A stretch of DNA of 64,000 nucleotides from an uncultured Pseudomonadota bacterium (GTDB taxonomy: Bacteria; Pseudomonadota; Alphaproteobacteria; Acetobacterales; Acetobacteraceae): positions 364,949 through 428,948 of the forward strand of contig CAVTQY010000002.1 of assembly GCA_963736975.1 (NCBI GenBank), written 5' to 3'. Made by a program: the position numbers and the translations under genes. Positions within the stretch are counted from its first letter, which is position 1; each line of letters begins with the position of its first letter. Under the pieces are notes generated by a model. It saw nothing but the letters and a program-made list of their open reading frames with translations. It had not been told where the DNA came from and searched no databases. Below are positions 11,148 through 47,606 of the stretch, in pieces.

Positions 11148-11350
11148 GGCAGCGCCGCCACCTATAGCGGTGTCGAGACGAGCGTGTGCGAGGCGTGCAA
11201 TCTCGACATTGCGTCTGTCGCCGTGAGCGATTTATGTTGCAGAGGCCACACGAACTACACCTACGGCCCCGACGAGGCGATGAAGACGCACGCGCGCATC
11301 CGGCGCCTGGACCAGGCCGCGGCGTGCTGGGGGAATGAGGGTGCTGCTGA
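11148..11350 (+). pseudogene. Diverged duplicate of the 3' end of the isochorismatase-family gene
   Basis: Nucleotides align by eye with 10201-10410. The translation ...GVETSVCEACNLDIASVAVSDLCC...DEAMKTHARIRRLDQAA compares with GVETSVREAFNLDVACVVVRECCW...DKAMKMYARIRRLEQVA. There is no upstream coding part. Confidence 0.7.
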
Positions 11351-11635
11351 TTGGTACAACGACTCGAGCCGCCAAGGTCGACCCCAAACGGTTCAATGCG
11401 CGCCGTCGGTTTTCGACCGTCCCCACCGTGATACACCATCAGCTCCGCCCGCGGTGCCAACGCGGCCATATCCGACCAGGACCATCGACATCGAAACTGT
11501 TGGACATTTGGGGATATCGGCCGAAAAATGTCGGTGCGTGCGGCCGCCGCGCGGCAATCAGCGGCCGCGCTTGACGGGCGCCGCGAATGTCGGCCCTGCC
11601 CGGCCGGCTGCTTCGAGAACGGCGCAGGAGGCGAT

Positions 11636-13290
11636 ATGGATTATCCTTACGACCTCGGCCCTTATTCCCGGACGGTGACCACGGCCTCGGCGGACGCCCA
11701 GCGCTGGTTCGACCGCGGCCTCAACTGGTGCTTCGGTTACCACCATGAGGAGGCGATCGCCTGCTTCCAGAAGGCGCTTGAGGCCGACCCGAACTGCGCC
11801 ATGGCGCACTGGGGCATCGGCTACGCGGCCGGGCCGAACTACAACTTCCCCTGGGAACTGATGGACCCCGCGGGTAAGGCGGTGGCACTCGCGCGCGCCC
11901 ACTCTGCCGCCTGCGCAGCCCTCGCGCTGGCCGGAGGTGCCACCGCGCCGGAACGGGCGCTGATCGGGGCGTTGACCACCCGCTATCCACAGCGCGACCC
12001 CATCGAAGACCAGTCGCCCTGGAACGACGCCTTCGCCGATGCCATGCGCCACGCACACCAAGCGTATCCAGACGACCTCGACTTACGCGCCATATTTGTT
12101 GAAGCGATCCTCAATCGTACGCCCTGGCTCATGTGGGACCTGCGTACCGGCGAGCCCGCGCCCGGCGCCGGCACGCTGGAAGCGCGCGAGGTGCTCGAGT
12201 GCGCCTTCCGCGATCTGCCCGGGGCGATGGACCACCCCGGTCTTCTGCACCTGCATGTGCACCTGATGGAAATGTCACCGCATCCGGAGGTTGCGTTGGT
12301 AACGGGTGACCGACTGCGCGAGATGAGCCCGGACATGGGCCACCTGGTTCACATGCCCACGCACATCGACATTCAGTGCGGCTACTATCGCGACGCGATG
12401 CACTGGAATCATAAAGCGATCGTTGCGGACCGCAAGTTCTATGACCTCGCCGGGCCGATGAATTTCTATTCGGGTACCGGATACATAATTACCATTTCGC
12501 CGCTTACGGGGCTATGTTCCTCGGCCAGTACGCGCCGGCGATCGCGGCCGTTGACGAGCTGATCGCGACCATGCCGGAAGCGTTTCTGCGCATTCCTTCA
12601 CCGCCCATGGCGGATTTTTTCGAAGGATACGTTTCCATCAGGCAGCACGTGCTGGTGCGCTTCGGCAAATGGCGCGAGATCATCGCGCAGGAGTTGCCGG
12701 CCGATCGCGAGCTGTTTTGCAACACCGTGGCGATGATGCACTACGCCAAGGGCGTCGCCCACGCCGCGCTGGGGGAGGTGCAAGCAGCGGAGGCGGAACA
12801 GGCGCTGTTCAGGGACGCCGCGAAACGCGTCCCGAAGTCGCGGCAAATCCACAACGTGTCCTGCGTGCAGCTTCTGGCTGTGGCCGAGGAGATGCTGGCG
12901 GGCGAGATCGCGTATCGGCGAGGCGAGCACGATGCGGCGTTCGCGCGTCTCCGCGCTGCCGTTTCGCTGGAGGATGATCTGCCGTACGACGAGCCGTGGG
13001 GGTGGATGCAGCCGGTCCGCCACGCGCTGGGTGCGCTGCTGCTGGAGCAGGGCCGCCCGGCGGAAGCCGAGGTGGTGTATCGCGAGGATCTTGGGCTTGG
13101 GGGCGCGTTGCCTCGGGCGCAGATCCACCCCGACAATCTGTGGGCTCTGCGCGGGCTGCTCGATTGCCTCGAGCGGCGGGGCGAGACGGCGGAGGCCGCA
13201 CTTATTCGCCAGCGGGTGAAGTTCGCGGCGGCGCGTGCAGATTTGCCGGTATGGGTGTCCTGTTTCTGTGCCGGCGGCATGGCGGCCTGA
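11636..13290 (+). pseudogene. TPR-like helical-repeat protein gene split by a -1 frameshift at ~12472-12475
   Basis: ORFs 11528..12562 (ATG 11636, GGAGG upstream) and 12514..13290 are two halves of one protein. The frame changes inside TCGGGTAC. Reading ...PMNFYS then, in the second frame, YRIHNYHFAAYGAMFLGQYAPAIAAVDE restores a continuous sequence. Confidence 0.65.
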
Positions 13291-14276: not shown

Positions 14277-17200
14277 ATGGTTCAGTCCACGCTGCATCTC
14301 GAAGTTGCAGAGTTCCGCGATGCCGATCATTGGCGCTTTGTGCTGAAGGAGGCCGGCGGGGCGTTCCTGGCCGACCACGTCGCCGCGCTCGATCGGGCCG
14401 ATGCCCACTATGCCGCGCTAGTCGATCTGCCGGGCTATCTGCGCATGCATAGCGCACCGGATACCCGTGCGGCTGATGAGCAGCGGCTACTTGTTGAGGT
14501 AGGTAGTTGGATCGGCAAGCAAGTGTTGGGCCGGAGCCTTGCGGAGAAGCTGCTGTCGCGGGTGCCGCCGTCGGTGGTGGTGCGCGTGCTGGTCCCGCCG
14601 ACGGCAGAGCGGCTGCTCGCGTTGCCGCTCGAGATCGCACGGCTGGACGGCGGCGAGCCCCTGTCGGTGCAGGGCGTCAGCTTCGTGTTCGAGACGACCG
14701 GCACGGCGCCGCCACGAGCGGAGCCAGTCGGCGAGCGGCTGCGCATCCTGGCACTATTCAGCCTGCCGCCGGTCGGCAGCCCGCTGAATCTCCGCCGCGA
14801 GCGGCAGATGCTGCGTAATCTGGTACGCCGCTTGGCCGGCGCGGCCGGTCTTGGGGTGGAGTTGCACGTCCTGCAATACGGCGTGACGCGGAAGAGCCTG
14901 CAGGAGGTGCTGGAGCAGGGCGAGGGCTGGGACGTCATCCATTTCTCCGGCCATGGCCAGCCGGGCGCGCTGCTGCTGGAGCGCTCCGATGGCAAGCCGG
15001 ACGAGGTCTCCTCGATCGATCTCGCAAAGCTGCTCCGACAGGCGGGCGGACGGGTGAAACTGGTGACCTTGTCGGCCTGCCTGTCGGCAGCGGCCAGCGT
15101 CGCGCAGACGCTGTCCTGGCTTGGCTTCTCGGAGGGAGAGGCGGCGAAGCGCGACGCCTCGCCGGCTGTAACCACGGAAAAGCAGGACACCAAGGCGGCG
15201 CCGACGGTCGCGCGGGCGCTGACCGAAACGCTCGATTGCGCGGTACTGGCGATGCGCTACGCGGTCGAGGACGAGTTCGCGATGAACCTGGCGCGGGAAC
15301 TCTACGACCGGCTGTTCCGCCAGAAGCAGCCATTGCCGCAGGCGACAAGGCTGGCGCTTGCCAGTGTCGCTGGGGGCGAACGAGGAATCCCCGCCGTGGG
15401 TGCGCTCTCCGCCGCGGCGCCGGCGCTGTTCGGTCCACGTTCTGCGGACCTGATGCTCGTCCCGCCCAAGGGCACGGGGATCGACGCGGATACGTCGCTC
15501 GCTTTCGTGCCGAAGCTGCCGGAGCACTTTGTCGGCCGGGTGTCGGCGATGACGCGCGCGAGCGCGGCGCTCGCCACCGAGAGCAGCCGGAGCGGCGTTC
15601 TGTTCCACGGCATGGCGGGCGCCGGAAAGACCAGCTGTGCGGTCGAGCTCGTTTATCACCACGCCGCCGTTGGCCGGTTCCAGCGCTTTGTCTGGTTCTC
15701 GGCGCCGGAGCAGGGCAAGGACATCGCCCTGGCGCTGCGTGACTTCACACTGGCGCTGGAACGCCAGATCCCCGACCTGGCCATGCTGCAGGTCATCGAC
15801 CGCACCGACGCGTTGCGCGACTGGCTGCCACGGCTGGCTGAGGTGCTGGAGAACAACGCGCTCCTGATCGTGCTGGACAACCTGGAGAGCCTGCTGACCG
15901 AGGCGGGGGTATGGCGGGACGAGCGCTGGGGGTTGCTCGTCGAGGCCCTGCTGACCGCGGGCGGGCTGTCGCGCACGGTGCTGACCAGCCGCACCCGCCC
16001 TGCCGCGCTGCCGGAGTCGACCGAGGTAATCGCGGTGCACGCACTGCCGCGCGACGAGGCGCTGCTGTTGGTGCGCGAGCTGCGCAACCTGCGCCGGTTG
16101 CTCGACGGTGCGAAAGAGACCGGCGTGAGCCAGGAGGCGGGCCGGCAACTGGTGCGCCGGGTGCTGCGCCTGGTGCAAGGCCATCCCAAGCTGATCGAGC
16201 TGGCCGAGGCGCTGGCCGCGGCGCCGGCAAAACTGGCCGCGCAGCTCGACGAAGCCGACAAGGCGCAGACCGCGGGTGCCGGCGAACTCGACGCCTTCTT
16301 CGCCCAAGGCGAGACGCGACTCGGTCCGGCGGAATTTGTGGAGAGCCTGCATGGCTGGACCCGCGGCATCGCCGGCGCACTACCGGAGGCTGCACGCACC
16401 GGCTTCCATTTCCTTTGCGCCCTGGAGGAGGGTGACCGGCAGGGTTGGATCATCGCGGCCAACTGGTCGGACGTGTGGCAGCGCCTTGGCCGCCCGGCGC
16501 CGGCGCCGGATTTTCAAGCGGTGCTCGCCCCGCTCGTCGCGGCAGGGCTGGTCGACAAACAGGCGACCGCCGACCAGGCGGACGAGTTCGAAGTGCTGAT
16601 CCATCCTGGCATCGCCGAGGCCGGCCGCGCCGAGGCTGGCGCGGACCTGCAGGCCGCCGTCGATCACGAGCTCGCCGCGACGTGGAACACGCTGTTTCGG
16701 AACGCTTGGAAGGCGGAGGGCCGTGAGGCCTGGGCCGGCCCAATGATGGTGCGCGCCGGGCTGCACGGCTTCCCGTACTTCGCCCGCCTTGGGCACTGGG
16801 AGTTGGCTGCGGGAATGATGGACAGGGCCGTGCATCTGGACACATCGCCCGGTACGATCGCCGCAGTGCTGCCGCTGCTACAAAAGGTGGTCTCTGCCGC
16901 GACGGGCACCGAGCGGCAGAATGCGGAAAACCGCGGCATCCTCGCCAAGGTTCTCGAACTGGCCGGCCGGACCGGCGAGGCGGAAGGCCTGCTCCGCGAC
17001 CTCATCGCGCAAACTGCCGAGCGGGGTGAGTTTGGGGCCGCCTCTGTAAATTCAGGCACTTTGGCCAAACTGCTCCGGCGCACCGGTCGGGCGCGCGAAG
17101 CCTTACAAGTAATCGAGCGGCAGGCCGAATACACCAAGCAGGCAGGCTACGGGGCATGGACACAGTTAGCCGACGAGGTTCGGCGTCTGCAGATCCGCGT

Positions 17201-18071
17201 CGAGCTTGGCGAACATAGCGATGTGCTCGCGCGCGTGCTGGAGCTGCGCGGGCAGATGCACCAGTTGCCCGATCCGCCCGAGGCGAACGACCGGTCGGTG
17301 ACCACGTGGAATGTGCGTGAGACAATGTTGGATGTCGGGCGCAACGCTGCGGTGGAATCAGGTGAATGGCAGCCAGCCCTTGATCTCAACGCTGAGATTT
17401 TGCAGAGCAGCGTCAACCGCGGCGCCGGGGCTTTTGAACTTGCGCGTGGCCGGTTCAACGATTACGGGCCGCTACTGCGGCTGCAACGTTATGGTGAGGC
17501 CCGCAGCCTTTTGCAGCACTGCCGGGACGTGTTCGAGCAGGAGAACGCCGTGGCGGAGCTCGGGGCGGTGTTCTCTGGCCTTGCGGATCTAGAGGACGAG
17601 CTCGGCCGTAAAGAAGCGGCGGGGCGTTTCGAGCAAACGGCAATTCGCTACGAATATGCTGCGGGAAACCCCAGCAGTATCGCTATCAGCCACTTCAATC
17701 TCGCCAAATACCTGACCAAGGCGGATGGCGATTGGCGCGGCGCGCTCGGACATCGGCTGGCCGCGGCAATGATCAGATGCATCACCGGATCGGCGGGATT
17801 GGAGCAGGCGATCACGGCACTCGCCAGGGATCTTCGCAACGCCGGCGGCCAGGCGAGCGCGGCTCTGCCCGGCGATTTGGCCGCGCTGTATGCGGACGTG
17901 CAGCAAGTCGAAGGCGTGCGCTTCCACGAGTTGATGCAGCGACTGCAGCCGGACGAGGCGGCACTGGAACAGCTCCTGCAAGACATTATCGCCGGTGCGA
18001 AGAAACGGGCCGACGCAAATGACGGTGCATCGCCTGATCGCGGGCCACAGCAGGGGGAGGGGTCACAATGA
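14277..18071 (+). CDS. CHAT (caspase-like) protease - STAND P-loop NTPase - TPR-like repeat protein, 1264 aa
   Basis: The CHAT dyad context is WDVIHFSGHG (His226, nt 14952-14954) and KLVTLSACLS (Cys268, nt 15078-15080). Walker A is VLFHGMAGAGKTS (nt 15609-15632) and Walker B-like is NALLIVLDNLESLL (Asp534). The C-terminal ~450 aa are helical repeats. It is a single uninterrupted ORF with coding-like G/C third positions. Confidence 0.85.
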   Translation: MVQSTLHLEVAEFRDADHWRFVLKEAGGAFLADHVAALDRADAHYAALVDLPGYLRMHSAPDTRAADEQRLLVEVGSWIGKQVLGRSLAEKLLSRVPPSVVVRVLVPPTAERLLALPLEIARLDGGEPLSVQGVSFVFETTGTAPPRAEPVGERLRILALFSLPPVGSPLNLRRERQMLRNLVRRLAGAAGLGVELHVLQYGVTRKSLQEVLEQGEGWDVIHFSGHGQPGALLLERSDGKPDEVSSIDLAKLLRQAGGRVKLVTLSACLSAAASVAQTLSWLGFSEGEAAKRDASPAVTTEKQDTKAAPTVARALTETLDCAVLAMRYAVEDEFAMNLARELYDRLFRQKQPLPQATRLALASVAGGERGIPAVGALSAAAPALFGPRSADLMLVPPKGTGIDADTSLAFVPKLPEHFVGRVSAMTRASAALATESSRSGVLFHGMAGAGKTSCAVELVYHHAAVGRFQRFVWFSAPEQGKDIALALRDFTLALERQIPDLAMLQVIDRTDALRDWLPRLAEVLENNALLIVLDNLESLLTEAGVWRDERWGLLVEALLTAGGLSRTVLTSRTRPAALPESTEVIAVHALPRDEALLLVRELRNLRRLLDGAKETGVSQEAGRQLVRRVLRLVQGHPKLIELAEALAAAPAKLAAQLDEADKAQTAGAGELDAFFAQGETRLGPAEFVESLHGWTRGIAGALPEAARTGFHFLCALEEGDRQGWIIAANWSDVWQRLGRPAPAPDFQAVLAPLVAAGLVDKQATADQADEFEVLIHPGIAEAGRAEAGADLQAAVDHELAATWNTLFRNAWKAEGREAWAGPMMVRAGLHGFPYFARLGHWELAAGMMDRAVHLDTSPGTIAAVLPLLQKVVSAATGTERQNAENRGILAKVLELAGRTGEAEGLLRDLIAQTAERGEFGAASVNSGTLAKLLRRTGRAREALQVIERQAEYTKQAGYGAWTQLADEVRRLQIRVELGEHSDVLARVLELRGQMHQLPDPPEANDRSVTTWNVRETMLDVGRNAAVESGEWQPALDLNAEILQSSVNRGAGAFELARGRFNDYGPLLRLQRYGEARSLLQHCRDVFEQENAVAELGAVFSGLADLEDELGRKEAAGRFEQTAIRYEYAAGNPSSIAISHFNLAKYLTKADGDWRGALGHRLAAAMIRCITGSAGLEQAITALARDLRNAGGQASAALPGDLAALYADVQQVEGVRFHELMQRLQPDEAALEQLLQDIIAGAKKRADANDGASPDRGPQQGEGSQ

Positions 18072-26769: not shown

Positions 26770-26846
26770 GGACCCGTAGCTCAGTTGGATAGAGCGTCGC
26801 CCTCCGAAGGCGAAGGTCGCACGTTCGAGTCGTGTCGGGTCCGCCA
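26770..26846 (+). tRNA. tRNA-Arg (anticodon CCG)
   Basis: Hand-folded cloverleaf: GGACCCG-TA-GCTC-AGTTGGATA-GAGC-G-TCGCC-CTCCGAA-GGCGA-AGGTC-GCACG-TTCGAGT-CGTGT-CGGGTCC-G-CCA. 77 nt with an encoded CCA. Confidence 0.9.
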
Positions 26847-26938
26847 GCTTCGCGACGCCCCCCGAAAGCGGGCCGGTCCCTCAATATGCGCCAGAGCCTA
26901 TCATTCCCGCATTTCCCATCCAATGCGGGCTTGGTCGG

Positions 26939-28903
26939 TTGGATGCGCCCGAGGCAAATCACATGCACTCCGACACACTGATCCGTCTGTTTTATCGTCA
27001 CTTTCTTGGGCGCTCGCCGGATCCGCCGGGGTTTGCGTCTTTCATGAATCACCTCGAGCAGGGCACGGATCTGCGCGAAATCATCCGTATGTTCGTGGAG
27101 AGCGAGGAATACCACCGGCGCGAAGCCGCACTCGTCCCGCAGGTAATCGATTTCTCGCCGCTGCAGCACCGTCCGATCGTCATCGTCGATGTGGGAGCGC
27201 AGAAGCTCGAGGGCGAGGACCACATCTACACGCCCATTCTGACCTCAGGGCTGGATTGGCGTTGCATCGGTTTTGAGCCTTTGAAGCACCGGCTGGCGAG
27301 TCGCCGCGAAGCAGAGCCGGACCCGCGGATACGGCTTCTGGACGCGTTCATCGGCGATGGATCGGCGCGCACGTTTTACACGAACAACGAGGACGCCACC
27401 TCCTCGCTATTGCCCCTTGCGCTGGAAACTAATGCCGCCTTCACCGGACTTCGCCAGCTTCGGTCGGTGAAGACCACAGAAGTCGAAACTTCTCGCCTGG
27501 ATGACATTCTCGCCCACGAACCGCACATCGACCTGCTGAAGCTGGATATCCAGGGGTTCGAGCTCGAGGCGCTGCGTGGTGCGAAGGACACCCTGCGCCG
27601 GACGAATCTCATCCATTGCGAGGTTTCCTTTTTCCCCATGTACATTGGCTCCGCGCTGTTCGCTGATATCGATCGCTTCCTGCGGGAACAGGGCTTTGAG
27701 TTCCTCGATTTTGTGCATCTGTCCCGCTATGCTTACGCTGATCTCGATCCGGGTGAAGACCGGCTGATTTGGGGCGATGCGGTCTTTTTCCGAAAACTTG
27801 CGGCTGGCCCGAGCGAAGTCGAGGCGGCCTTTGCTCAAGCGGCGTTAGCAACCCTGATTTTCGGCAAATACGGCTTCGCTTCGCACGTCGCCCGAACCGC
27901 TGGAACCGCGGCGCTCGCGGCGTTGTTCGAACGTTCCCCGGCCGACAGCCCCGCGCCCAGCGGAACCCAGCCCAGTGCGCCCGCGAGCCAAAGCCTCGAG
28001 ACGCTTTCTCTCGATCCCCTCGTGCGCGACCCGCGCTTTCGCATTGAAATGACCGCAAGCTGCCGGGATTGCGACAGCATACCAAAGGTGGCGAACGCGG
28101 GAGCGATCCTCGACAGCAGCGGCCGCCGGGCCCAGGTCATGCACAACGGTGTTCTTGTGGTGGCGGGCGGCTATCATGGCGAGTGGATGGCCGAAGTGAT
28201 TAGCAGGCTGCGCGGCCATCACGAGCCGCAGGAGGAACTGGTTTTTCACACCGTTCTCGCGCACATCCCGCTTGAAGCTACGATGATCGAGCTGGGTGGC
28301 TTCTGGTCCTACTACTCGCTCTGGTTCCTGCAACAGGCGCCCTCAATGCGGCGGGCAGTCGTGCTTGAGCCCGATGCGGCTCACCTCCTCATAGGCCGCG
28401 CCAATGCCGAGCTGAACAGCCGCGATCTGACGTTCGTGCACGCTAGTGCCGGCATAGGCTCCCTCCCGCCGCAGCCTTTCCAGACTGAATTGTCCGGGAC
28501 CGCTCTGGTCCCGCAGACCTGCGTGGAGGATCTGATGTCCCATGCCGGCCTCGATGTTCTGGATGTCCTGCATTGCGATACGCAGGGTGCTGAAATCGAC
28601 GTCATCCGCTCATGTGAAGACCTGTTTCGGCAGCACCGGATACGCTTCTGCCTAATATCGACGCATCATATGTCGATTAGCGGGGATCCACTCACGCATC
28701 AGCGTTGTCTCGCCCTGCTTCGCCATTACGGCGGCCGCATTCTGGCCGAGCATGATGTCCATGAGAGCTTCAGTGGTGATGGGCTGATTGCCGCATATTT
28801 CGGCGAGGAACCACTCGACTGGCAAGAGCCGGCGATCAGTCGCAATCGCTATTCCACCAGCCTGTTCGCGAACCCGCTGTTTGATCTCGCAGCTTTGGTA
28901 TAA
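26939..28903 (+). CDS. DUF4214-like N-terminal domain fused to two FkbM-type SAM methyltransferase modules
   Basis: 654 aa. The N-terminus LIRLFYRHFLGRSPDPPGFASFMNHLEQG is DUF4214-like. FkbM-like module 1 is IVIVDVGAQKLEGE...IDLLKLDIQGFELEALRG. Module 2 is MIELGGFWSYYSLWF...LDVLHCDTQGAEIDVIRS. An alternative start lies at 26963. Confidence 0.7.
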   Translation: MDAPEANHMHSDTLIRLFYRHFLGRSPDPPGFASFMNHLEQGTDLREIIRMFVESEEYHRREAALVPQVIDFSPLQHRPIVIVDVGAQKLEGEDHIYTPILTSGLDWRCIGFEPLKHRLASRREAEPDPRIRLLDAFIGDGSARTFYTNNEDATSSLLPLALETNAAFTGLRQLRSVKTTEVETSRLDDILAHEPHIDLLKLDIQGFELEALRGAKDTLRRTNLIHCEVSFFPMYIGSALFADIDRFLREQGFEFLDFVHLSRYAYADLDPGEDRLIWGDAVFFRKLAAGPSEVEAAFAQAALATLIFGKYGFASHVARTAGTAALAALFERSPADSPAPSGTQPSAPASQSLETLSLDPLVRDPRFRIEMTASCRDCDSIPKVANAGAILDSSGRRAQVMHNGVLVVAGGYHGEWMAEVISRLRGHHEPQEELVFHTVLAHIPLEATMIELGGFWSYYSLWFLQQAPSMRRAVVLEPDAAHLLIGRANAELNSRDLTFVHASAGIGSLPPQPFQTELSGTALVPQTCVEDLMSHAGLDVLDVLHCDTQGAEIDVIRSCEDLFRQHRIRFCLISTHHMSISGDPLTHQRCLALLRHYGGRILAEHDVHESFSGDGLIAAYFGEEPLDWQEPAISRNRYSTSLFANPLFDLAALV

Positions 28904-28984
28904 CATCGCCGCCCATCGGCAGAGCGGCGTCACACTGGACGCTCGCGGAAGCCGGTTATGCGGTGCGTCAACAAAGGACAGACC

Positions 28985-31231
28985 ATGTCGGCATGGATGC
29001 CAGCGTTATTCGCGCGTGCACTGCTGCGCGCAATTCCGATGTTCATCATCGCCTGCACCGGCGCGGCAGCGGCGCCATCCTTCACCGAGGCATCCGTACC
29101 CCCGGCAAAGCTGCCGGCCATCTCAGGCACTATGCTGACAGTCAGCCCCGGCGGCCAGTACCCCGATCTCGCTTCCGCATACGCCGCGTCGAAGCCGGGC
29201 GATACGATCATCATCGCCCCCGGCAGCTACACAGGCGGTCAGGCAGCCCGAAATGCGGATGTAACAATCCGCCATGACCTCACGATCAAGTGCCAGCCAG
29301 GCGCAGTTTTCGACAACCCGGCAACGACGATCGACCCAAAGAACCTGAAGGCGGCGAATGTCGCCAAGGGCTATCTCGTTATCGGGAACCAGCGCAATCT
29401 TCCCTTCACGCCCGACGTCCTGATCGATGGCTGCACGTTCCAACATGCTATCAGCTTCAGCTATAACGGCGCCGGCATCCGCTACCAATCGGGCAACCTG
29501 ACCGTGCGGAACTCGACCTTCCGCGACAACCAGATGCATATCCTCGCACCACCCACGGTGACCGGCAGCGGCAACATAACGCTTGAAAAGGATACCTTCC
29601 TCACCGGTGCGTTTGCGGCGACGGGCCTCGGACACGCCCTTTACATCGGCACCGTCAAGTATTTCACCATCGCGAACAGCAAGGTGATCGGCGTCTACGA
29701 CGGCCACGGCGTGAAAACCCGCGCCGCCAACAACCTGATCAAGGACAACACGATCGGCGACGGGCCGGGCGAGGACGGCCAGATGAGTTATCAGATCGAG
29801 GCAGCGGAGAACGGCAACACGATCGCGGAGGGCAACACGTTGGAGAAGGGCCCGCATGCGACGAACTCGGCCTTCATCCAGACCGGAACCCTGGATGGCG
29901 TCGCCTGGCCCGACACCACGATCATCATCAGGAGCAACACCTTCATCGACGACCATGACGGCGAAGGGGCAAACGCCACGGGCCCGATCAGGGCATTGTG
30001 GAATATTTCCCTGACCCATGTGCAGATGACGGGCAACAAGTTCGTCAACATGGCCAGGAGCTTCGATCAGGACGGCAAGAACTGGGCGCTGCAAGGCACC
30101 GTAGATTTCACCGGGAACGTGGACGGAAACCGCAGACCGATTCCCGACGCGCACCTTGTCGGCTACAATTATTCGTGGCGAACCGTGGATTACAGTTCCT
30201 CAACCGGTCCGGTGACCTACACCACGCCGCCCGGCCCTCCTATGACCGTGATCGGCGGCGCTGGCAAGCTCACCTTCAACAATCAGGGCCGCAACTGGAC
30301 GGTGATTTCCGGACCGGGCGGACTCTCGGTGGCCGATACAGGCGGTCGGCTGCGCGTGATCACCGCCGCGGGGTCCAAAAGTATCCTGTCGTTGCTCGGG
30401 TCCTCGCGCTACTCGGGATACGGCGATGACACCGTGACATTCGCCGGCAGAAGCAACGGAACCGGCCCCCGTCCCGGGGGGAACCAGATCTATGGCACGG
30501 CCGCGATCAGCGAGCCGGTCGATTTCGGCCTGGCTGCTTACGCCGTCACTGGTGCCGCGACGATCCACATGGCCGGCGGCACGCGGCACTTCCTGGGCGA
30601 GGTATATCCCGGCGGTTCAATGTCTGTTTCCGGGCCGCTCGGCCCGTCGCTTTCGGTCGGCGAACAGGGCGGTTCGCTCAGCCTCGACGTAACGCAAGCG
30701 GATACCGGCACCGAAAGTATCGCCGACCTGCGCGGCGGCTGCATGTCGGTTCTCCGGGGAGGCAAAGCGGACAACCCGATCACCATCACCGTGATGCCAA
30801 TGGAAGGCGCGGATCTGGCGACCTTCAACCCATCCCCGCGCGGGTTCAGCACCGCACCTGCCATATCCCTTCGTCGTGGCAGCTATCTTATCCACAACTT
30901 CGATCAGCACCTGATCGTGAACGTGTCGAGCGGCGATCAGAGCATCGCTGTTTCCAATGGAGGCAACGAGGCGGTGCCGCGGGAGCGCGCCGTGACGGAA
31001 TTCCGGGTTGATGCCACGGCGAACACCGGCACGACGATGATCACCGCTTTCGCCGGGGGCGGTGCCCGGTTCGCTGATGGTCGATGGGGCAAGGTCACCA
31101 CGTTCCGTCTCAGTTTCTCCGGCTTTACCGGCAACCCCATCGCGGCCGGAGCCGAGACAGGGCCGGATCTGAGGCTCACACTGATCAACGGCAAGACGAT
31201 CGTATTGAAGAACACGCGGGCCGGATCGTAG
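28985..31231 (+). CDS. Secreted right-handed parallel beta-helix repeat protein (pectate-lyase-fold, glycan-active?)
   Basis: ORF 28958..31231 with a signal-like MSAWMPALFARALLRAIPMFIIACTGAAAAPS. Repeated N-rich rungs (GNLTVRNSTFRDNQMHI, NNLIKDNTIGDG, GNTIAEGNTLEKG, IIIRSNTFIDD) are typical of the beta-helix fold. The C-terminal ~350 aa are Gly/Ser/Thr-rich. Confidence 0.7.
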   Translation: MSAWMPALFARALLRAIPMFIIACTGAAAAPSFTEASVPPAKLPAISGTMLTVSPGGQYPDLASAYAASKPGDTIIIAPGSYTGGQAARNADVTIRHDLTIKCQPGAVFDNPATTIDPKNLKAANVAKGYLVIGNQRNLPFTPDVLIDGCTFQHAISFSYNGAGIRYQSGNLTVRNSTFRDNQMHILAPPTVTGSGNITLEKDTFLTGAFAATGLGHALYIGTVKYFTIANSKVIGVYDGHGVKTRAANNLIKDNTIGDGPGEDGQMSYQIEAAENGNTIAEGNTLEKGPHATNSAFIQTGTLDGVAWPDTTIIIRSNTFIDDHDGEGANATGPIRALWNISLTHVQMTGNKFVNMARSFDQDGKNWALQGTVDFTGNVDGNRRPIPDAHLVGYNYSWRTVDYSSSTGPVTYTTPPGPPMTVIGGAGKLTFNNQGRNWTVISGPGGLSVADTGGRLRVITAAGSKSILSLLGSSRYSGYGDDTVTFAGRSNGTGPRPGGNQIYGTAAISEPVDFGLAAYAVTGAATIHMAGGTRHFLGEVYPGGSMSVSGPLGPSLSVGEQGGSLSLDVTQADTGTESIADLRGGCMSVLRGGKADNPITITVMPMEGADLATFNPSPRGFSTAPAISLRRGSYLIHNFDQHLIVNVSSGDQSIAVSNGGNEAVPRERAVTEFRVDATANTGTTMITAFAGGGARFADGRWGKVTTFRLSFSGFTGNPIAAGAETGPDLRLTLINGKTIVLKNTRAGS

Positions 31232-31237
31232 GGTTTG

Positions 31238-32470
31238 TCACGTCGGCCGGACATGCTCCGGCAGAAAGCCGAGCCCGACCAGCCGGGCTGCCAGCCCACG
31301 CAGCGCCGGCACGTTCTGCATCAGCCGCAGCGCGAGCGGCACGGTTGGGGTCGTGTCCGCCGCCAGCACACGGCGGATCACCCGGTTCTGCAGCAGGATC
31401 TGCAATCGCTGCGTCAGCCGCGTCGGTGTCTCCCGCCGGCGCTGCACGGCCTTTAATGTTTCATGCGAAACATGGCCGGCCCGCAGAGCGGGGATCAGGA
31501 TATTGGCTGCCGCGACCGCATCCTGTATCGCCAGGTTGATGCCCACGCCGCCGATCGGCGACATGGCGTGCGCGGCATCGCCGATCAGCAACAGACCGGG
31601 GCGGTGCCATTCGCGCACGCGGTTCACCGCCACGGTCAGCAGCTTCACATCGTCCCAACTGTTGATCTCATCGACGCGATCGGCAAAAGCCGGCACCAGC
31701 CTCGCGATCTCGGCGCGAAACGCCGGCAGGCCCCTTGCATGTATGTCATCCACCGCACCTTTGGCGATCACGAATGCGCATTGCCAGTAATCGCCGCGGT
31801 CGATCGTGATAAAGATCCGCCCGGCGGTGACACGACCCAGTGAAACCTGCGGATCGTCGTTGCGGCGCGGCAGCCGTAGCCATAACACGTCCATCGGTGC
31901 GCCGAGATCGAGCACCCGGAACCCTCCGGCCTCGCGCAAGGTTGAGTGTCGCCCATCGGCCGCGACCACCAGTTCCGCGCTGATCTCCAGCTCACGGTCC
32001 GGCCCGCGGGCACGCAACCCACGCACGCAGCCAGCCGCTTCGATCAGACCCGTCGCCTCTGTCTGCATCAACAAGCGGAAGCTTGGGTAGGCTTTCGCGC
32101 GACTGGCCAGGAAGTCGAGGAAATCCCATTGCGGCATGAGAGCGATGAAGCCGCAGCGCGTCGGCAGATGGGTGAAATCGGCAACCTCCAACACGGTATC
32201 GCCGATCTGCGCGCCGAGCGTTCGTGCCTTGGCGTGCGGGAGCTTCAGCAGGTCGTCGAGCATGCCGAGCTCATGCATGACCTGCAGCGTCGAGGGATGA
32301 ATCGTGTCGCCGCGGAAGTCGCGCAGGAAATCGGCGTGCTTTTCCAGCACGGTCACATCGATACCGGCGCGAGCGAGCAGCAGCCCCAGCATCATGCCGG
32401 CAGGGCCGCCGCCGGCGATGCAGCAACGGGTGGATAGAGCGGCCATCGGGCGAGAGCTTAGCACCGGCAC
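31238..32470 (-). CDS. FAD-dependent monooxygenase/oxidoreductase
   Basis: Dinucleotide-binding motif CCIAGGGPAGMMLGLLLARAGIDVTVLEK, plus LLIGDAAHAMSPIGGVGINLAIQDA (GD motif). Confidence 0.8.
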   Translation of the reverse strand: MPVLSSRPMAALSTRCCIAGGGPAGMMLGLLLARAGIDVTVLEKHADFLRDFRGDTIHPSTLQVMHELGMLDDLLKLPHAKARTLGAQIGDTVLEVADFTHLPTRCGFIALMPQWDFLDFLASRAKAYPSFRLLMQTEATGLIEAAGCVRGLRARGPDRELEISAELVVAADGRHSTLREAGGFRVLDLGAPMDVLWLRLPRRNDDPQVSLGRVTAGRIFITIDRGDYWQCAFVIAKGAVDDIHARGLPAFRAEIARLVPAFADRVDEINSWDDVKLLTVAVNRVREWHRPGLLLIGDAAHAMSPIGGVGINLAIQDAVAAANILIPALRAGHVSHETLKAVQRRRETPTRLTQRLQILLQNRVIRRVLAADTTPTVPLALRLMQNVPALRGLAARLVGLGFLPEHVRPT

Positions 32471-32493
32471 GGGAAGAATGGAGGGGCGTTTTC

Positions 32494-32805
32494 TTACCTC
32501 GTGACACTGCGCAGGAAGGACCGATCCTCGTTCAGGATGCAGCCCGAGGCATCGACGCGGCGAGCCGTCTCGGCGGCGGCGGGATCGGCGGCGAGCTTCT
32601 CCCGATACCGTTCATAGCAAGCGAGGTCGGGAAAATCGATGAGGCCCAGCGCGATGTTGGTCGGGCCGGCGAATTTGGTCGGCAGGTAGTAGTGCGCGGA
32701 GGTGCCGCCGCAGCGCTCGATATGGGCGGGCAAAGCTCGAGCATACGCGTCGAAATCGGCCATTTTGTTGATATCCAGCGTGTAGCGGATGCAGAGGGTG
32801 AACAT
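32494..32805 (-). CDS. NIPSNAP-family protein
   Basis: 103 aa. MFTLCIRYTLDINKMADFDAYARALPAHIERCGG... is a ferredoxin-like dimeric alpha-beta barrel pattern. Confidence 0.7.
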   Translation of the reverse strand: MFTLCIRYTLDINKMADFDAYARALPAHIERCGGTSAHYYLPTKFAGPTNIALGLIDFPDLACYERYREKLAADPAAAETARRVDASGCILNEDRSFLRSVTR

Positions 32806-32902
32806 GCGCTTCTCCCGATCGTTGTGACCGCAGGGAGATGATCCGGGGAGCGGGTCCGGTCGAGTGCGAACGCTTCGGCGCTGACCGAAGCGAGGGAGGC
32901 CT

Positions 32903-33196
32903 AGTGCGCAGTATCAGGGCACGGTGCAGTCCGCCAAGGCGGCGATCGCCACCGACCAGCTCAACATAGCGTACTGCCACATCGTCTCCCCGATTGATGG
33001 GGCGCGTCGGCCTGCGTCTGGTGGATCCCGGCAATTATGTGCAGACCAGCAACACCGCGGGGATCGCCGTCGTCACCCAGTTGCAGCCGATGTCACCTCG
33101 AAGACGCTGCCGCTGATCCAGGTGGAGGATCTCGGTGATACAAGGCTGGCGCAGAAGATATCGCAGCCGCCCGGCGTGGGGCTGGTCAGCATGGGC
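32903..33196 (+). pseudogene. Fused remnants of an RND efflux operon (MdtA-like membrane-fusion fragment + MdtB-like permease fragment)
   Basis: QYQGTVQSAKAAIATDQLNIAYCHIVSPIDG, then (frameshift in the GGGG run at ~32998-33001) RVGLRLVDPGNYVQTSNTAGIAVVTQLQPM, is the centre of an MFP. It is directly joined to IQVEDLGDTRLAQKISQPPGVGLVSMG, which recalls from memory an N-proximal periplasmic-loop segment of MdtB-type RND permeases (not aligned to a reference). Both fragments lack starts and ends. Confidence 0.55.
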
Positions 33197-33420
33197 TCGA
33201 TATCGACGGCCTACGCACCACGCCTGACAATGCCAATGTGGATGATCCGAAGGGCAGCGTCTACGGAGTTGGCTTCGAGCGGGAGGCCCGTGCGGGTGGC
33301 GTAGCGGCGTTCGATGTTCTCGATGTGTTTCACGTGAAACGTTCGTAAATAAACAGTAAACGAGGCGCTGGTATAAGGGCTCGTGCGCCGGTCCGATTAT
33401 CTGGGCGTAGCTGCCGCGAG

Positions 33421-33548
33421 GTTGTACAACAAGGCGTTTCGGGGCGATGCGCGTTGTACAACGGGGCATTTTGGGGCGCCGTCGGTTGTACAACAGGGCT
33501 TTTTGGGGCATGGCCAGTTGCACAACAGGGCTAAAATCGGGTGCGCCA
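33421..33548. repeat. Four tandem 32-bp iteron-like repeats, each starting with the 10-bp palindrome GTTGTACAAC
   Basis: The units start at 33421, 33453, 33485 and 33517, an exact 32-bp register. They read GTTGTACAACAAGGCGTTTCGGGGCGATGCGC / GTTGTACAACGGGGCATTTTGGGGCGCCGTCG / GTTGTACAACAGGGCTTTTTGGGGCATGGCCA / GTTGCACAACAGGGCTAAAATCGGGTGCGCCA. Confidence 0.9.
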
Positions 33549-33617
33549 GATGTACGTTTGGACGGCTGATCGTCTCGGATTTGAGCTAAGAGTTAGGCAC
33601 CGCTAAATTTTTGGGGA

Positions 33618-36072
33618 ATGCCGATGTCGCCCGAGGGTTGGGAGCGGGGTAGGTCGGGCATTTACGTGTGGATAAGAATTGAGAGGTGGCCATTGTGCCC
33701 ATCGGCGACGGGTCGAGGACCGGGGGGCCTCGCTGCATGGCGGGCCATTCGGCGGCATCAATGCCTCTTTCCTCGAGTCCGGTCAAAGGTCGACTCCAGG
33801 CACAAGCTCGCCGAGACCGACCGGACAGGCGCGGCAAAACTTGTCGCGGAGTTTCACGCCCGGCTTTGCGGCGTGCGCGTGTTGATCCGGCCTGCGGGAC
33901 GGGGAATTTTCTGTATGTGACGCTGGAGCTGATGAAGCGGCTGGAAGGGGAGGTGCTTGATCTGCTGGTTGATCTGTCGCCGGGCGAAGGCGATCGGTTA
34001 TCGCTGAGCGGGGCGAGCGTTGATCCGCACCAGTTTCTTGGATTGGAGAAGAATCCGCGCGCTGTGCCTGTGGCAGAGCTTGTGTTGTGGATCGGCTGGT
34101 TGCAATGGCATTTCCGGACGCGCGGCAAGGCTCCGCCGGCGGAGCCGATCATGCATGACTTCCATAATATCCAGGAACGGGACGCGCTGCTGGCTTATAC
34201 GGATGAGGTGCCTGAACGCAACGCACGGGGCGATCCGATGACGCGTTGGGATGGCCGCACCTTCAAGCTGCATCCGATCACCGGGGAGGAAGTGCCGGAC
34301 GAAACGGCCAGGGTTCTGACGTTGCGGCCGGTGGGGGCGATGGCTCAGAGTTGGCCGGCAGCCGATTTTGTCGTCGGCAATCCGCCGTTCATCGCCGGCA
34401 AGGATTTGCGGACGGAGCTTGGCGAGGGCTACACGAAGGCTCTGTGGGGGGCATATCCGGACGTGCCGCGTTCGGCCGACCTCGTCATGTTCTTCTGGTG
34501 GAAAGCGGCGGAGCTGGCGCGAACCAGCGATCTGCCGCGGCGGTTCGGCCTCATCGGGTCCAACAGCATCCGGCAGACCTTCTCGCGCCGCGTCATGGCG
34601 GCGGCGCTGGAGGGCAAGCGCCGGCTGCATCTGGTGTTCGCCATTCCGGACCATCCGTGGGCGGACGGCGCCGGGGCGGCTGCGGTTCGGATCGCGATGA
34701 CGGTGGCTGAGCGATCGATCTCGGCGAAGCGGACCGGCCGGCTCGCCACGGTGACTGCGGAGCGAGCGGTAAAGGAGGGTGCGCCCGAGGTCGAGTTGGC
34801 GATGCGCGAGGGGGTGATCAACGCTGACCTGACGGTGGGGACGGATGTAACCTCGGCGCGGCCGCTGAGGGCGAACGAGGGGCTGTGTTGTCCCGGCGTA
34901 AAGCTGCATGGTGCAGGATTTATCGTCTCTCCCGCAACTGCACGCGGGCTGGGGTTGGGACGGATTGCAGGGTTGGAGCGGCATATCCGGCCTTATCTGA
35001 ACGGGCGCGATCTGACGCAGAGAAGCCGCGGGCAGATGGTGATTGATCTTTTCGGGCTCACGGAAGATGAGGTGCGGCAGCGGTTTCCGGCGGTGTACCA
35101 GCACGTCCTGCTGCGGGTTAAGCCAGAGAGGGATCAGAACAACCGGCCCAGTTATCGCGACGCGTGGTGGGTATTCGGCGAGCCGAGGCGGGAGCTGAGG
35201 CCTGGTTACGTGGCCTGCGACGTTATACCGCTACTGTGGAAACCGCGAAGCACAGGCCGTTTGTGTTTTTGCCGGCTGAGACAATTGCTGACAACATGCT
35301 GGTCTGTTTCGCCAGCGATGACGCATTGCATCTGGGTGTTTTGTCGTCGAGGTTCCATGTTGTTTGGGCGCTCGCGGCCGGTGGTCGGCAGGGCGTAGGC
35401 AACGATCCTCGATACAATAAGACACGTTGCTTTGATCCATTCCCTTTCCCATTTCCCACCCATTCGCAGGCGGAGAAGATTCGGGTCGCTGCCGAGGAGC
35501 TGGACACACATCGGAAGGCTCGACTGTCCGCCCATCCTGAGCTCACCCTGACTTCCCTTTATAATGTGCTCGTTGCTTTACGCGCCGGCGCCCCACTCTC
35601 GCCGGCGGAGCGCGACATCCATGATGCGGGGCAGGTGTCGATCCTGCGTGAGTTGCATGATCGGCTGGATGCAGCCGTTGCCGCTGCGTATGGTTGGCCG
35701 GTTGACTTGAACGACAGCGAGGTCCTCACACGACTTGTGACGTTGAATGCGGAGCGCCGAGCCGAGGAAGAGGCCGGGCTCGTTCGCTGGCTTCGGCGCG
35801 AGTATCAGGCTCCGGAGGAGACTGGCAGGCGTGCGACGCAGAGCAGCCTTGTCATCGAAGAAACGACCGTCGTGGAGGCGCTTCCCTGGCCGAAGCGGAT
35901 ACCCGACCAGTATGTCACTCTGCGTGCGGCACTTGCTGGGCATCCGGCGACGCCGACCGAGCTGACCCGCCGCTTCGTTCGGGCGCCGCGTACCCGCATG
36001 AAGGAGATGCTGGAGGCGCTGGTCGCCATGGGGCAGGCTCGGCAGGTCGGCGACGGGCGGTATGTGAGTTGA
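33618..36072 (+). pseudogene. Decayed MmeI-like (type IIL/IIG-like) N6-adenine DNA methyltransferase, 5'-truncated and frameshifted
   Basis: Motif I is split by a missing G at 33884: ...AEFHARLCGVRVL (frame of ORF 33618) / DPACGTGNFLYVTLE (ORF 33686). Motif IV is FVVGNPPFIAG. A second frameshift at ~35198-35203 joins ...WWVFGEPRRELR to LRGLRRYTATVETAKHRPFVFL...LGVLSSRFHVVW...CFDPFPFP (ORF 35164..36072). Only ~90 codons lie upstream of motif I, versus several hundred in full-length relatives. Confidence 0.7.
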
Positions 36073-36109
36073 TGACGGGCACCCTCACCCGGTTCGCTTT
36101 GCGAACCGA

Positions 36110-36131
36110 CCTCTCCCGCGAGCGGGAGAGG
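36110..36131. repeat. GC-rich REP hairpin (CTCCCGC...GGGAG family)
   Basis: CCTCTCCCGC-GA-GCGGGAGAGG. Related hairpins lie at 41193-41215 and 56630-46. Confidence 0.5.
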
Positions 36132-36387
36132 TGACGCTGCTCTCCGAGCTTACTCAGAGGCAACGGCGGCGGATTGAAGGGCAGTTCCGGGTCGAGATCG
36201 GTCGCCGCAGATGGCCGCTGGTGTAATACCAGCCCGCGGAAATGTTGACCCTCCTGGGTCATTGCGGCGGAAGCCGGGAACCCAGGCGAGAGGCGCCGAA
36301 TTCCATGGAGCAGCCTGGGTGCCGGCTTTCGCCGGCATGACGAAGGAAGCGTCGGCGGTTTCGCGGGCGTATAAGTGCTTGGAAAGG

Positions 36388-36463
36388 TGGCTCCCGGAGT
36401 AGGACTCGAACCTACGACCCAGCGGTTAACAGCCGCTTGCTCTACCGACTGAGCTATCCGGGA
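36388..36463 (-). tRNA. tRNA-Asn (anticodon GTT)
   Basis: The reverse complement folds as TCCCGGA-TA-GCTC-AGTCGGTA-GAGC-A-AGCGG-CTGTTAA-CCGCT-GGGTC-GTAGG-TTCGAGT-CCTAC-TCCGGGA-G-CCA. 76 nt. Confidence 0.9.
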
Positions 36464-43220: not shown

Positions 43221-43395
43221 CTGCGCGGGTGCGTGCAGTACACCTGGATCGCCACGCCGCCGCAATCGGCAGCGGCTCGCGATGACGTGGAGCCCGAACG
43301 CGATAACAGTTGACAGCCGCAGCGGCCGGGCCTAAGCGCCATGCCGGGTCACGCCCCCCCACCGGGGCGCTTCTCTTCTGCAAGGGAGAGCCGTC

Positions 43396-46156: not shown

Positions 46157-46583
46157 GGAGATAATACCAGCCTCGTCTGGTGGCGGCTTTGGGCGGAGAG
46201 CCGACGTTGCCACCCGGCCGCCTCTACCAGACGCGATGACCGGTTTCAGGCAGCGGCGGCCGATCAGGGCCGCCAACCTTCACTTACCGACCCAACAACT
46301 CAGCGAAGCGCCACCGCTTCTCAGCGGCAGCCCGGCGCGCCGGTTTACGCCGCATCCCACCCGGAGTCGCGTTGTAATGCGCATTAGCGGCGGGCGGTGT
46401 GACTGGCCATGTAGCTGAGAGATCGCATGGTGGTGAGCCTTTCATGGTCCGGCAGAGTGCGTATGCGGGGGGCACGATGGAGCACTGACACAAAGCACCA
46501 AGGTCCCCCTGGTGCTCTAACAGTGCGAGATTCGTCTCCTATGAGCGACCAACCCAATGGCTTCTCGAACCTTCTCCGTCAAA

Positions 46584-46856
46584 TCAGTCCTGCCACGGAT
46601 TACGATAATTCGGATCTTGCTGCTGCCGACTCTTGACATAGTCTTGTTGGTTCTGCATTGCTTTCTGGCTCATTTGGTGCTTGTTCCATTCATGTCCAGC
46701 AATGCACCCCCCGATGGCCCCGAGCACGCCATGACCCGCCATATGACCCGCCAAGGCTCCCGCAGCGCCGCCAGATAGGCAGCCGATAGCGTTCGCTGAG
46801 GGGCTCGCCGCTGTGAGGCCCAAAACTGCTGCCGCAGCGATAAGTGCATATCGCAT
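46584..46856 (-). CDS. Small secreted glycine-zipper protein (hypothetical)
   Basis: ORF 46584..46883, start at M10. Signal MRYALIAAAAVLGLTAASPSANA, then GCLSGGAAGALAGHMAGHGVLGAIGGCIAGH. It lies in a visibly AT-richer stretch. Confidence 0.5.
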   Translation of the reverse strand: MRYALIAAAAVLGLTAASPSANAIGCLSGGAAGALAGHMAGHGVLGAIGGCIAGHEWNKHQMSQKAMQNQQDYVKSRQQQDPNYRNPWQD

Positions 46857-46872
46857 CGATAATCCCTCCATC

Positions 46873-47262
46873 TCACTTAGCATACGCTTGCTTGTGGAAC
46901 ACCATCACATCATTTTTGCTGGAAACGAGCCGCAGCACCTTCCCGCCCTGCTCCAACGTGTATTTGTCTTCCTCGACCTGGGCAGCGCCGTGCTCCTCAG
47001 TCGTTTTCGATTTCACCGGGGTGAAAACGAGCGTTCCGGTTGTGGCATTGGCTTTTTTCTGTTCGTAGGAGCCCGCCATCTCAGCCACGAGCTTGTTGCT
47101 CTGCACCGTCTGGCTGGTCCAATAACCATCCGCCAGCACGTCCATGGCAATGATCACGTTGTGACCGAGATTGGCTTCCCATTGTCCAGAAATACTTTCA
47201 TCCGCCATCGCTAGCATGGGCGTGAACGCGATGACGGCGGCGAGAAGTGCACGGCGATGCAT
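46873..47262 (-). CDS. Small secreted hypothetical protein
   Basis: 129 aa with signal MHRRALLAAVIAFTPMLAMA. No family recognised. AT-richer codon usage than the neighbours. Confidence 0.5.
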   Translation of the reverse strand: MHRRALLAAVIAFTPMLAMADESISGQWEANLGHNVIIAMDVLADGYWTSQTVQSNKLVAEMAGSYEQKKANATTGTLVFTPVKSKTTEEHGAAQVEEDKYTLEQGGKVLRLVSSKNDVMVFHKQAYAK

Positions 47263-47606
47263 GAACTTACGCTCCTGCTGTTTCTACCGACGGAAAGAGC
47301 GCCAGAACGGCGGCTAACCCTTGCCGACGAACCCAAACTATCTCTCCGTCAAGGCGACTGCAAAAGCCGAGCAGGGTCCTTCCCCTTGGCCTCATGCTGG
47401 GATGATCGAAGCCCGGCGAGGTCAGCAGCGCTCACTACAGGATCGCTGATCTGGTCGAGGATGACAAGGCGGCAGGTCGCTACCGCAGCAAAATCACTGG
47501 CTTGGGGGCTGCATAAGTCCCGGTGCGAATGACCGCAAAGGGTCGAGACCGGTCATCGGAAACCGGCCGCTGGTATAAAAGCGACTGAGCGAAGCCCCAT
47601 TCGTGG

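Follow-up and report, generated by a model that had tools for sequence, protein, structure and literature searches.

A partly decayed segment between two facing tRNA genes of an uncultured Acetobacteraceae bacterium, read on balance as a mosaic of unrelated pieces

The genes for tRNA-Arg(CCG) and tRNA-Asn(GTT) of an uncultured bacterium of the family Acetobacteraceae (contig CAVTQY010000002.1 of assembly GCA_963736975.1) point their 3′ ends at each other, with 9,541 bp in between. We have analysed this segment within a stretch of 64,000 nucleotides, hereafter the window, whose numbering is used throughout. A first-pass annotation, made by reading the sequence, had described the segment as the eroded product of one or more genomic islands integrated at the tRNA genes. 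The segment was found to be accessory-looking and partly decayed, as the annotation held. For the part of the claim that concerned integration at the tRNA genes we found no positive evidence, neither an attachment (att) repeat nor an integrase trace being detected. On balance, the evidence favored a mosaic of unrelated pieces, four or more in number, over a single element. The following features were located, from left to right:

26770-26846, + strand: tRNA-Arg(CCG), left boundary of the segment (ARAGORN, Rfam) and last member of a conserved polA-Hydrolase_4-tRNA-Arg micro-block
26939-28903, + strand: intact gene for a DUF4214 protein with a double FkbM-family methyltransferase (646 residues in the database copy, which begins at 26963; GC content 0.604, GC content at third codon positions, GC3, 0.70)
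28958-31231, + strand: intact gene for a right-handed beta-helix protein (Beta_helix) of 757 residues, GC content 0.624
30888-30896, + strand: perfect DnaA box, the second of two
31238-32470, − strand: intact gene for a FAD-dependent monooxygenase (FAD_binding_3; PRK06185 type)
31457-31472, no strand assigned: second parS-like palindrome, TGTTTCatgcGAAACA, 14/16 bases as in the consensus, arms intact, within the monooxygenase coding sequence
32494-32805, − strand: intact NIPSNAP-domain gene, co-directional with the monooxygenase gene and located 23 bp upstream of it
32933-33093, + strand: internally frameshifted scrap of an MdtA/MuxA-type adaptor of the resistance-nodulation-division (RND) efflux family, NCBIfam profile positions 180-231 of 392
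33101-33199, + strand: scrap of an MdtB/MuxB-type RND permease, NCBIfam profile positions 157-186 of 1040
33326-33341, no strand assigned: parS-like palindrome TGTTTCACGTGAAACg, 15/16 bases matching the chromosomal ParB-site consensus TGTTNCACGTGAAACA
33420-33548, + strand: array of direct repeats with four units of 32 bp, the first three containing the 10-bp palindrome GTTGTACAAC and the fourth GTTGCACAAC
33667-33675, − strand: perfect DnaA box TTATCCACA, 136 bp downstream of the array
33807-36069, + strand: remnant of an MmeI-like type IIG restriction-modification gene, equivalent to residues 388-1146 of a 1146-residue plasmid homologue, with one frameshift near 33885 and another at 35206
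36090-36132, no strand assigned: two adjacent small hairpins, the second of which (CCTCTCCCGCgaGCGGGAGAGG) is a REP-like (repetitive extragenic palindromic) motif
36318-36341, no strand assigned: GC-rich hairpin GGTGCCGGCTTTCGCCGGCATGAC
36388-36463, − strand: tRNA-Asn(GTT), right boundary of the segment (ARAGORN, Rfam)

ARAGORN detected exactly two tRNA genes in the window and Rfam confirmed both, with 66.9 and 70.7 bits, at the coordinates, on the strands and with the inward 3′ ends that had been annotated. The annotated contents (FkbM, beta-helix, monooxygenase and NIPSNAP genes, RND fragments, a repeat array and a methyltransferase) could likewise all be located. The segment is limited by the 3′ end of tRNA-Arg (26846) and by that of tRNA-Asn (36388), which is the location expected of an island integrated at a tRNA gene. 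About one facing tRNA pair within 10 kb would be expected by chance, assuming ~50 tRNA genes in a genome of 4-5 Mb, and facing tRNA genes less than 10 kb apart are not remarkable.

The left-hand part of the segment is occupied by intact genes. The FkbM protein had 172 homologues in all, the best full-length ones being 46-47% identical (one was named Verrucomicrobiota), in contrast to 80-84% for the neighbouring amidohydrolase on the other side of tRNA-Asn. These homologues showed a patchy distribution and stood alone in unrelated gene contexts. A conserved FkbM/beta-helix cassette was considered and rejected, given that the methyltransferase homologues were solitary in other genomes. Such patchy and distant homologues were the best single sign of horizontal acquisition, and the FkbM/beta-helix pair was probably acquired in this way. 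The N-terminus of the beta-helix protein carries a lipoprotein-type signal (FIIAC, read by eye only), suggesting that the protein is probably a lipoprotein; it gave no match in PADLOC or PHROGs. No sequence relatives of the FkbM and beta-helix proteins were found in the PDB. Going by family membership alone, the pair plausibly acts on surface glycan.

The central part of the segment begins with the scraps of an mdtAB operon, of 33-55 residues each. Another RND permease, apparently intact, is represented at the far end of the window by its C-terminal part (63044-64000, − strand) and continues past the window end. The search for coding remnants in 33150-33900, including short pieces, gave no Pfam match at E ≤ 5, and no non-coding RNA in the debris or in the array was revealed by Rfam even at E ≤ 1.

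In the array, each unit comprises GTTGTACAAC followed by ARGGC-N-TTTYGGGGC, with a conserved stretch of 26 bp. The units are 77-79% identical and their 32-bp period is equivalent to about three helical turns; over 33420-33531, the repeat was counted as 3.5-4 copies. By blastn, positions 33250-33700 were without similarity in 72,556 plasmids and positions 32806-33900 had none in phages, while the literature on the 10-mer GTTGTACAAC yielded primers only. Scans for repeats of this 10-mer returned 23 viral and 10 metagenome contigs. The metagenome arrays were rejected as homologues, their units, periods and GC contents being unrelated, as chance predicts for tandem repeats that contain a 10-mer. 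The viral hits were also rejected: many of them represented one phage family with the 10-mer within the terS gene, and none resembled the unit of the window. The architecture of the array resembles, by analogy, sopC-type centromeres as much as iterons.

The phage hits deserve a description of their own. In the family just mentioned (L087, L092, L098, L100, L105 and others, with GC contents of 30-56%), the 10-mer occurs two to three times in terS, where it codes for VVQQ, with a spacing of ~24-33 bp. Its repetition in terS across phages of such different GC contents suggests a constraint at the DNA level, such as a pac site. A second phage group (L083, L096, L104) carries non-coding GTTGTACAAC arrays close to the endolysin and terS genes.

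The right-hand part of the segment contains what had been annotated as a decayed DNA methyltransferase. The decay was evident, and the gene could be specified further as a type IIG restriction-modification gene of the MmeI-like kind, of which the C-terminal two-thirds are left. Two open reading frames (ORFs) with MmeI methyltransferase and target-recognition domains span positions 33686-36072 of the + strand. Pfam recognized MmeI_Mtase (1.2e-20) and MmeI_TRD (1.4e-9), and PADLOC assigned both pieces of the remnant to REase_MTase_IIG (PDLC03627; 1.6e-169 and 4.5e-104), with coverage of profile positions 406-1135 of 1136. A tblastn search against plasmids returned 71 records, the best of which was the 1146-residue gene on Paracoccus sanguinis pPspOM44; another homologue was found on an 8.7-kb Paracoccus marcusii plasmid that carries a rep gene. 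Residues 389-853 of the pPspOM44 homologue map to 33806-35206 with 58% identity and residues 854-1146 map to 35206-36069, in another frame, with 49% identity. No credible similarity to the homologue before residue 388 was detected in the window. The MmeI_N and MmeI_hel domains are present in the N-terminal part of the Paracoccus homologue, and the corresponding part is gone from the window gene. The remnant cannot be read in a single uninterrupted frame, which changes at about 33885 and at 35206, the latter break being a single-base deletion located outside any long homopolymer. A type IIG restriction-modification gene with its nuclease third gone and with two breaks is a fossil, and this one would be inactive, as the target-recognition domain is encoded past the second frameshift.

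Between this remnant and tRNA-Asn lie the features that had been annotated as several REP hairpins. The hairpins were confirmed, and the REP label was only partly appropriate: the hairpin motif of 36090-36132 is not repeated in the window and recurs in two of the relatives described below (L001 and L005), while GGTGCCGGCTTTCGCCGGCATGAC is present in single copy both in the window and in the relatives' loci.

Traces of integration were searched for in all six frames of the segment, by scanning its 84 stop-to-stop pieces of at least 60 residues against Pfam and PHROGs. Pfam returned only the six gene families already known from the segment and PHROGs two families only. This hidden Markov model scan revealed no trace of an integrase, excisionase, transposase, Rep, ParA/B or phage structural protein, in agreement with the annotated absence of integrase, transposase and phage structural genes. 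The annotated lack of a direct repeat of either tRNA 3′ end was also borne out. When up to three mismatches were allowed, the last 24-25 nt of each tRNA gene had the tRNA genes themselves as sole matches in the window. With blastn-short at word size 7, the remaining matches to either tRNA did not exceed 10-13 nt and had chance E-values. Neither att remnants nor integrase pseudogene traces turned up in the window.

The lower GC content that had been noted by eye was real when the segment (0.627) was compared with the rest of the window (0.661); the dip was, however, mild, uneven and equalled elsewhere in the window. The lowest 3-kb value was found at 27-30 kb, over the FkbM and beta-helix genes (z = −2.0), with comparable dips outside the segment at 17-21, 45-49 and 50-56 kb. 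The tetranucleotide distance did not exceed a z of 1.5. In the codon-usage comparison, the core genes polA, radA, purF, purA and hydrolase had a GC3 of 0.82-0.87, and low values in the segment were limited to the FkbM gene and the last part of the type IIG remnant (0.66); the remaining segment genes had 0.76-0.80, with 0.79-0.80 for the monooxygenase and NIPSNAP genes among them. Such a mild and uneven drop fits several pieces better than one island. Farther to the right, a low-GC stretch (0.50-0.60) at 46200-47600, between serA and accC, encodes no more than two proteins, which are small and apparently secreted (46584-46883 and 46873-47262, − strand in each case).

The gene neighbourhood was compared in 80 relative loci, taken with 10-kb flanks from a scan of species-representative genomes. 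The hydrolase that adjoins tRNA-Arg places the organism in the Acetobacteraceae, with its nearest database proteins at only 69-75% identity. tRNA-Arg(CCG) came directly after the hydrolase in 43 of the 80 loci and polA preceded the hydrolase in 74. The conserved block consists of polA-hydrolase-tRNA-Arg only, with both flanks differing in every relative and the relatives differing also from each other. None of the 80 loci had any gene of the window's 27-46 kb downstream of tRNA-Arg, and none had a tRNA-Asn within 10 kb. As a control, the far side of polA, where no tRNA gene lies, was equally unconserved. The amidohydrolase pair to the right of tRNA-Asn has orthologues of 80-84% identity in relatives, with other neighbours and no tRNA-Asn, and in one genome this pair is ~180 kb away from the polA locus. 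Since gene order was unconserved on both sides beyond polA-hydrolase-tRNA-Arg and the closest relatives shared ~70% amino acid identity, synteny cannot discriminate at such a distance. Hence, synteny was set aside as an island test, the flanks on both sides being reshuffled in all relatives.

The DNA downstream of tRNA-Arg in the relatives was inspected as well, and no partial repeats of the tRNA 3′ end were found there. The first ORF 3′ of tRNA-Arg in ten relatives included no integrase and three transposases, located directly downstream of the tRNA gene in L020 (11386-13032), L032 (11127-12467) and L024 (11064-12116), of which two were of the IS66 type and one of the DDE_3 type. One further relative had a Mutator-family transposase, making four transposases in all. 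The 112 ORFs of the first ~4 kb 3′ of tRNA-Arg in ~31 relatives matched 74 Pfam families, nearly all with single matches, and these included COX1, ilvD and genes for histidine biosynthesis and the photosynthetic reaction centre; among the 25 families listed of the 74, none was an integrase family. The tRNA-Arg neighbourhoods of the relatives look like ordinary reshuffled chromosome.

The two palindromes in the middle of the segment are candidate ParB-binding sites. The one at 33326-33341 reads TGTTTCACGTGAAACG, one base off the parS consensus. The two parS-like sites are 1.87 kb apart, and shuffled sequences gave an expectation of 0.01 matches at two mismatches or fewer. In 1.35 Mb of the relatives' loci there was no parS-like site with at most one mismatch, and the four looser hits all failed the strict pattern. 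Two perfect DnaA boxes were observed against 0.12 expected per window (P(≥2) = 0.006). They did not belong to a DnaA-box cluster, there being at most 2-3 boxes per 600 bp, a density equalled elsewhere in the window. No CtrA sites and no dif site were found, and no dnaA, parAB or hemE was visible among the long ORFs of the window. The local GC content falls to a minimum of 0.55 over 300 bp near the array, with a truly AT-rich stretch of only ~20 bp.

Within the 64-kb window, strand asymmetry, including that of GC skew as such, switches at ~32.2 kb (32100-32500), between the parS-like sites, with the polarity of an origin and independently of gene strand. The mean GC3 skew of the + strand was −0.021 in the 17 genes to the left of tRNA-Arg and +0.099 in the 23 genes to the right of tRNA-Asn (Mann-Whitney p = 0.008). 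Architecture-imparting sequence (AIMS) octamers, as used for Acetobacter pasteurianus, whose oriC was predicted beside dnaA (PMC3751514), were distributed as 6 on the + and 12 on the − strand at the left and as 20 and 5 at the right (Fisher p = 0.004), with the counts not being independent of GC skew. The GGGNAGGG motif, which is similar to the FtsK-orienting polar sequences (KOPS), occurred once on the + and twice on the − strand at the left and six times and not at all, respectively, at the right. The skew on the left side is patchy, with positive values at 10-20 kb. No skew switch was present at the tRNA-Arg locus of 29 relatives. The orientation of polA relative to the skew varied among 59 relatives, so that a rearrangement breakpoint would explain the pattern equally well.

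These data were weighed against several ways in which the segment could have arisen. The 3′ ends of tRNA genes are classical insertion sites of genomic islands, and one or more islands could have been inserted by a tyrosine integrase at the 3′ end of tRNA-Arg(CCG), of tRNA-Asn(GTT) or of both, with subsequent loss of int and att. We regard this origin as possible and rather unlikely. It would account for both 3′ ends facing the segment, for conserved synteny ending exactly at tRNA-Arg, and for the accessory, defence-type content with its pseudogenes, lower GC and patchy FkbM homologues; the transposases directly 3′ of the same tRNA in L020, L024 and L032 are also compatible with it. However, neither 3′ end is repeated beyond chance matches, no frame holds an integrase or excisionase trace, the ORFs downstream of tRNA-Arg in the relatives are mostly core genes with no integrase among the families listed, and synteny is lost just as abruptly beyond polA, where no tRNA gene lies. 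A different origin could apply to the right-hand ~3 kb alone (33.2-36.1 kb), as the remnant of an integrated plasmid or other replicon in which the parS-like site and the array would be centromere or iterons, the DnaA box part of an origin, and the type IIG gene cargo. The best homologues of this gene are plasmid-borne, including that of the small Paracoccus replicon with rep, and the helical-turn periodicity of the array, its conserved 26-bp unit, the nearby perfect DnaA box and the low local GC all point in the same direction. F sopC consists of tandem repeats with a palindrome in each, which is also the architecture of the window's array. Yet no trace of rep, parA or parB was present, the array region was unmatched in plasmids and phages, the AT-rich stretch is very short, and rep lies 3′ of the type IIG gene in the plasmid homologues, not 5′. 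The metagenome and viral arrays that share GTTGTACAAC also look like chance or unrelated phage terS regions. We consider a plasmid remnant improbable.

The segment centre might instead be native functional architecture, namely an origin-proximal centromere formed by the parS pair, possibly with a replication origin, around which accessory genes accumulated. The close pair of parS-like palindromes, much in excess of expectation and without counterpart at one mismatch in the relatives' DNA, would be compatible with such an arrangement, as would the concerted switch of GC3 skew, AIMS and GGGNAGGG, the two perfect DnaA boxes, and the position of polA in the complete chromosome of a relative, at ~3.6% of the record length from the record start. 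On the other side, the window lacks a DnaA-box cluster, CtrA sites, dif, and long ORFs for dnaA, hemE or parAB, and the predicted oriC of A. pasteurianus lies beside dnaA (PMC3751514). Both tRNA genes would be head-on to outgoing forks, the left skew is patchy, AIMS counts depend on GC skew, the relatives show no switch at this locus, and an inversion or translocation breakpoint would give the same local pattern. A native origin or centromere therefore seems quite unlikely to us. Similarly slim is the prospect that 31.4-33.7 kb, with its parS pair, array and DnaA boxes, is a working chromosome-organising locus, which would be either a centromere, and perhaps an origin, far from dnaA and in acquired DNA, or a captured plasmid origin/partition module.

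The mosaic that we favor, with slightly better than even confidence, would have been assembled step by step, through insertions, deletions and illegitimate recombination, in a lineage with very fluid gene order. Its pieces would be an intact accessory block, consisting of the DUF4214/FkbM methyltransferase and the putative beta-helix lipoprotein; the intact NIPSNAP/FAD-monooxygenase pair; ~1 kb of non-coding debris with the mdtA-mdtB scraps, the parS-like palindrome, the 4 × 32-bp array and a DnaA box; a dead type IIG restriction-modification gene of plasmid type, reduced to its C-terminal two-thirds; and the REP-like hairpins. The data show the anatomy, the decay and the lack of att and int, whereas we infer a horizontal origin for the FkbM/beta-helix block and for the type IIG remnant, as well as the order of events. 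Such a mosaic would form no functional unit, with the intact genes presumably expressed singly and the type IIG remnant inactive. The tRNA genes would be merely the ends of neighbouring conserved blocks, and it is possible that any one piece entered by means of an integrase at a tRNA 3′ end and left no detectable trace.

Several points weigh against this reading. The signals of horizontal origin are weak, with a GC dip of at most 2 standard deviations that is matched elsewhere and a tetranucleotide z that stays at or below 1.5, and the compared relatives all fall below ~85% identity, so that presence or absence of the segment is not shown by them. Both tRNA 3′ ends face the segment, which tRNA-targeted islands would also give, and att repeats of sufficient age can decay until they are no longer recognizable. 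Finally, the presumed debris includes an almost perfect parS site and a regular array where strand asymmetry switches, and its status as debris may be doubtful.

Other features were observed elsewhere in the window. A truncated second copy of an isochorismatase gene (~11148-11337) corresponds to the C-terminal 65 residues of the gene at 9685-10395, with 52% identity; this scrap lies outside the segment and shows that gene scraps are not confined to the tRNA-bounded stretch. The overlapping ORFs 11528-12562 and 12514-13290 (+ strand) appear by eye to be one gene of the tetratricopeptide repeat (TPR) type split by a frameshift. A protein of 1264 residues (14277-18071, + strand) seems by eye to comprise a CHAT protease, an NTPase and TPR-like repeats, and has a weak PADLOC match to SAVED_CHAT (2e-4). 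The stretch at 10-20 kb that holds this CHAT-like gene interrupts the purF-cvpA and radA genes, has the opposite GC skew and might represent another accessory insertion. Directly upstream of serC-serA, Rfam detected a serC leader (44.2 bits; 43342-43394, + strand).

If the central sites were indeed an origin or centromere, chromosome-organising sites would lie inside a plastic region, in a family for which the origins located to date are predictions only, beside dnaA (PMC3751514). Otherwise the segment is routine and brings no new mechanism, variable and partly decayed stretches next to tRNA genes being common. The type IIG fossil provides a clean example of an enzyme of this type losing its nuclease third first. 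The locus also gives reason for caution in two respects: facing tRNA genes, even together with accessory content, are insufficient proof of tRNA-targeted integration, and a synteny test is meaningless where the nearest genomes are so distant that all neighbourhoods are reshuffled.

Among known systems, the islands of P4-type tyrosine integrases, such as the high-pathogenicity island that Yersinia and E. coli carry at asn tRNA genes, resemble the segment in their position directly 3′ of tRNA genes (here one is a tRNA-Asn), in accessory content, in slightly low GC and in pseudogenes. In contrast to them, the segment has no integrase, no tRNA-derived repeats and no coherent element, and its absence in relatives is not attributable to insertion. 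Plasmid iteron origins and sopC-type centromeres share with the array the four tandem units of about three helical turns, the palindromic core and the nearby DnaA box, whereas the window's array has no adjacent rep or par, no homologue in plasmid and phage collections, and only four units. Chromosomal parS sites are comparable to the two palindromes in the 15/16 and 14/16 matches, the intact arms and the clustering as a pair; in the window, however, no parAB genes are nearby and one site lies inside a coding sequence.

The MmeI family of type IIG/IIL enzymes (Pfam MmeI_N, MmeI_hel, MmeI_Mtase and MmeI_TRD; PADLOC REase_MTase_IIG) aligns end to end with the remnant over the methyltransferase, target-recognition and C-terminal regions, from which the window gene differs as a fossil, by the loss of the N-terminal nuclease and helical spacer and by two frameshifts. 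Plasticity regions, or "islets," without mobility genes offer the last comparison. The plasticity of the segment would be deduced from a single genome with distant relatives, and the likeness lies in unrelated intact genes and scraps between conserved blocks, in a heterogeneous composition and in the occurrence of scraps elsewhere in the window.

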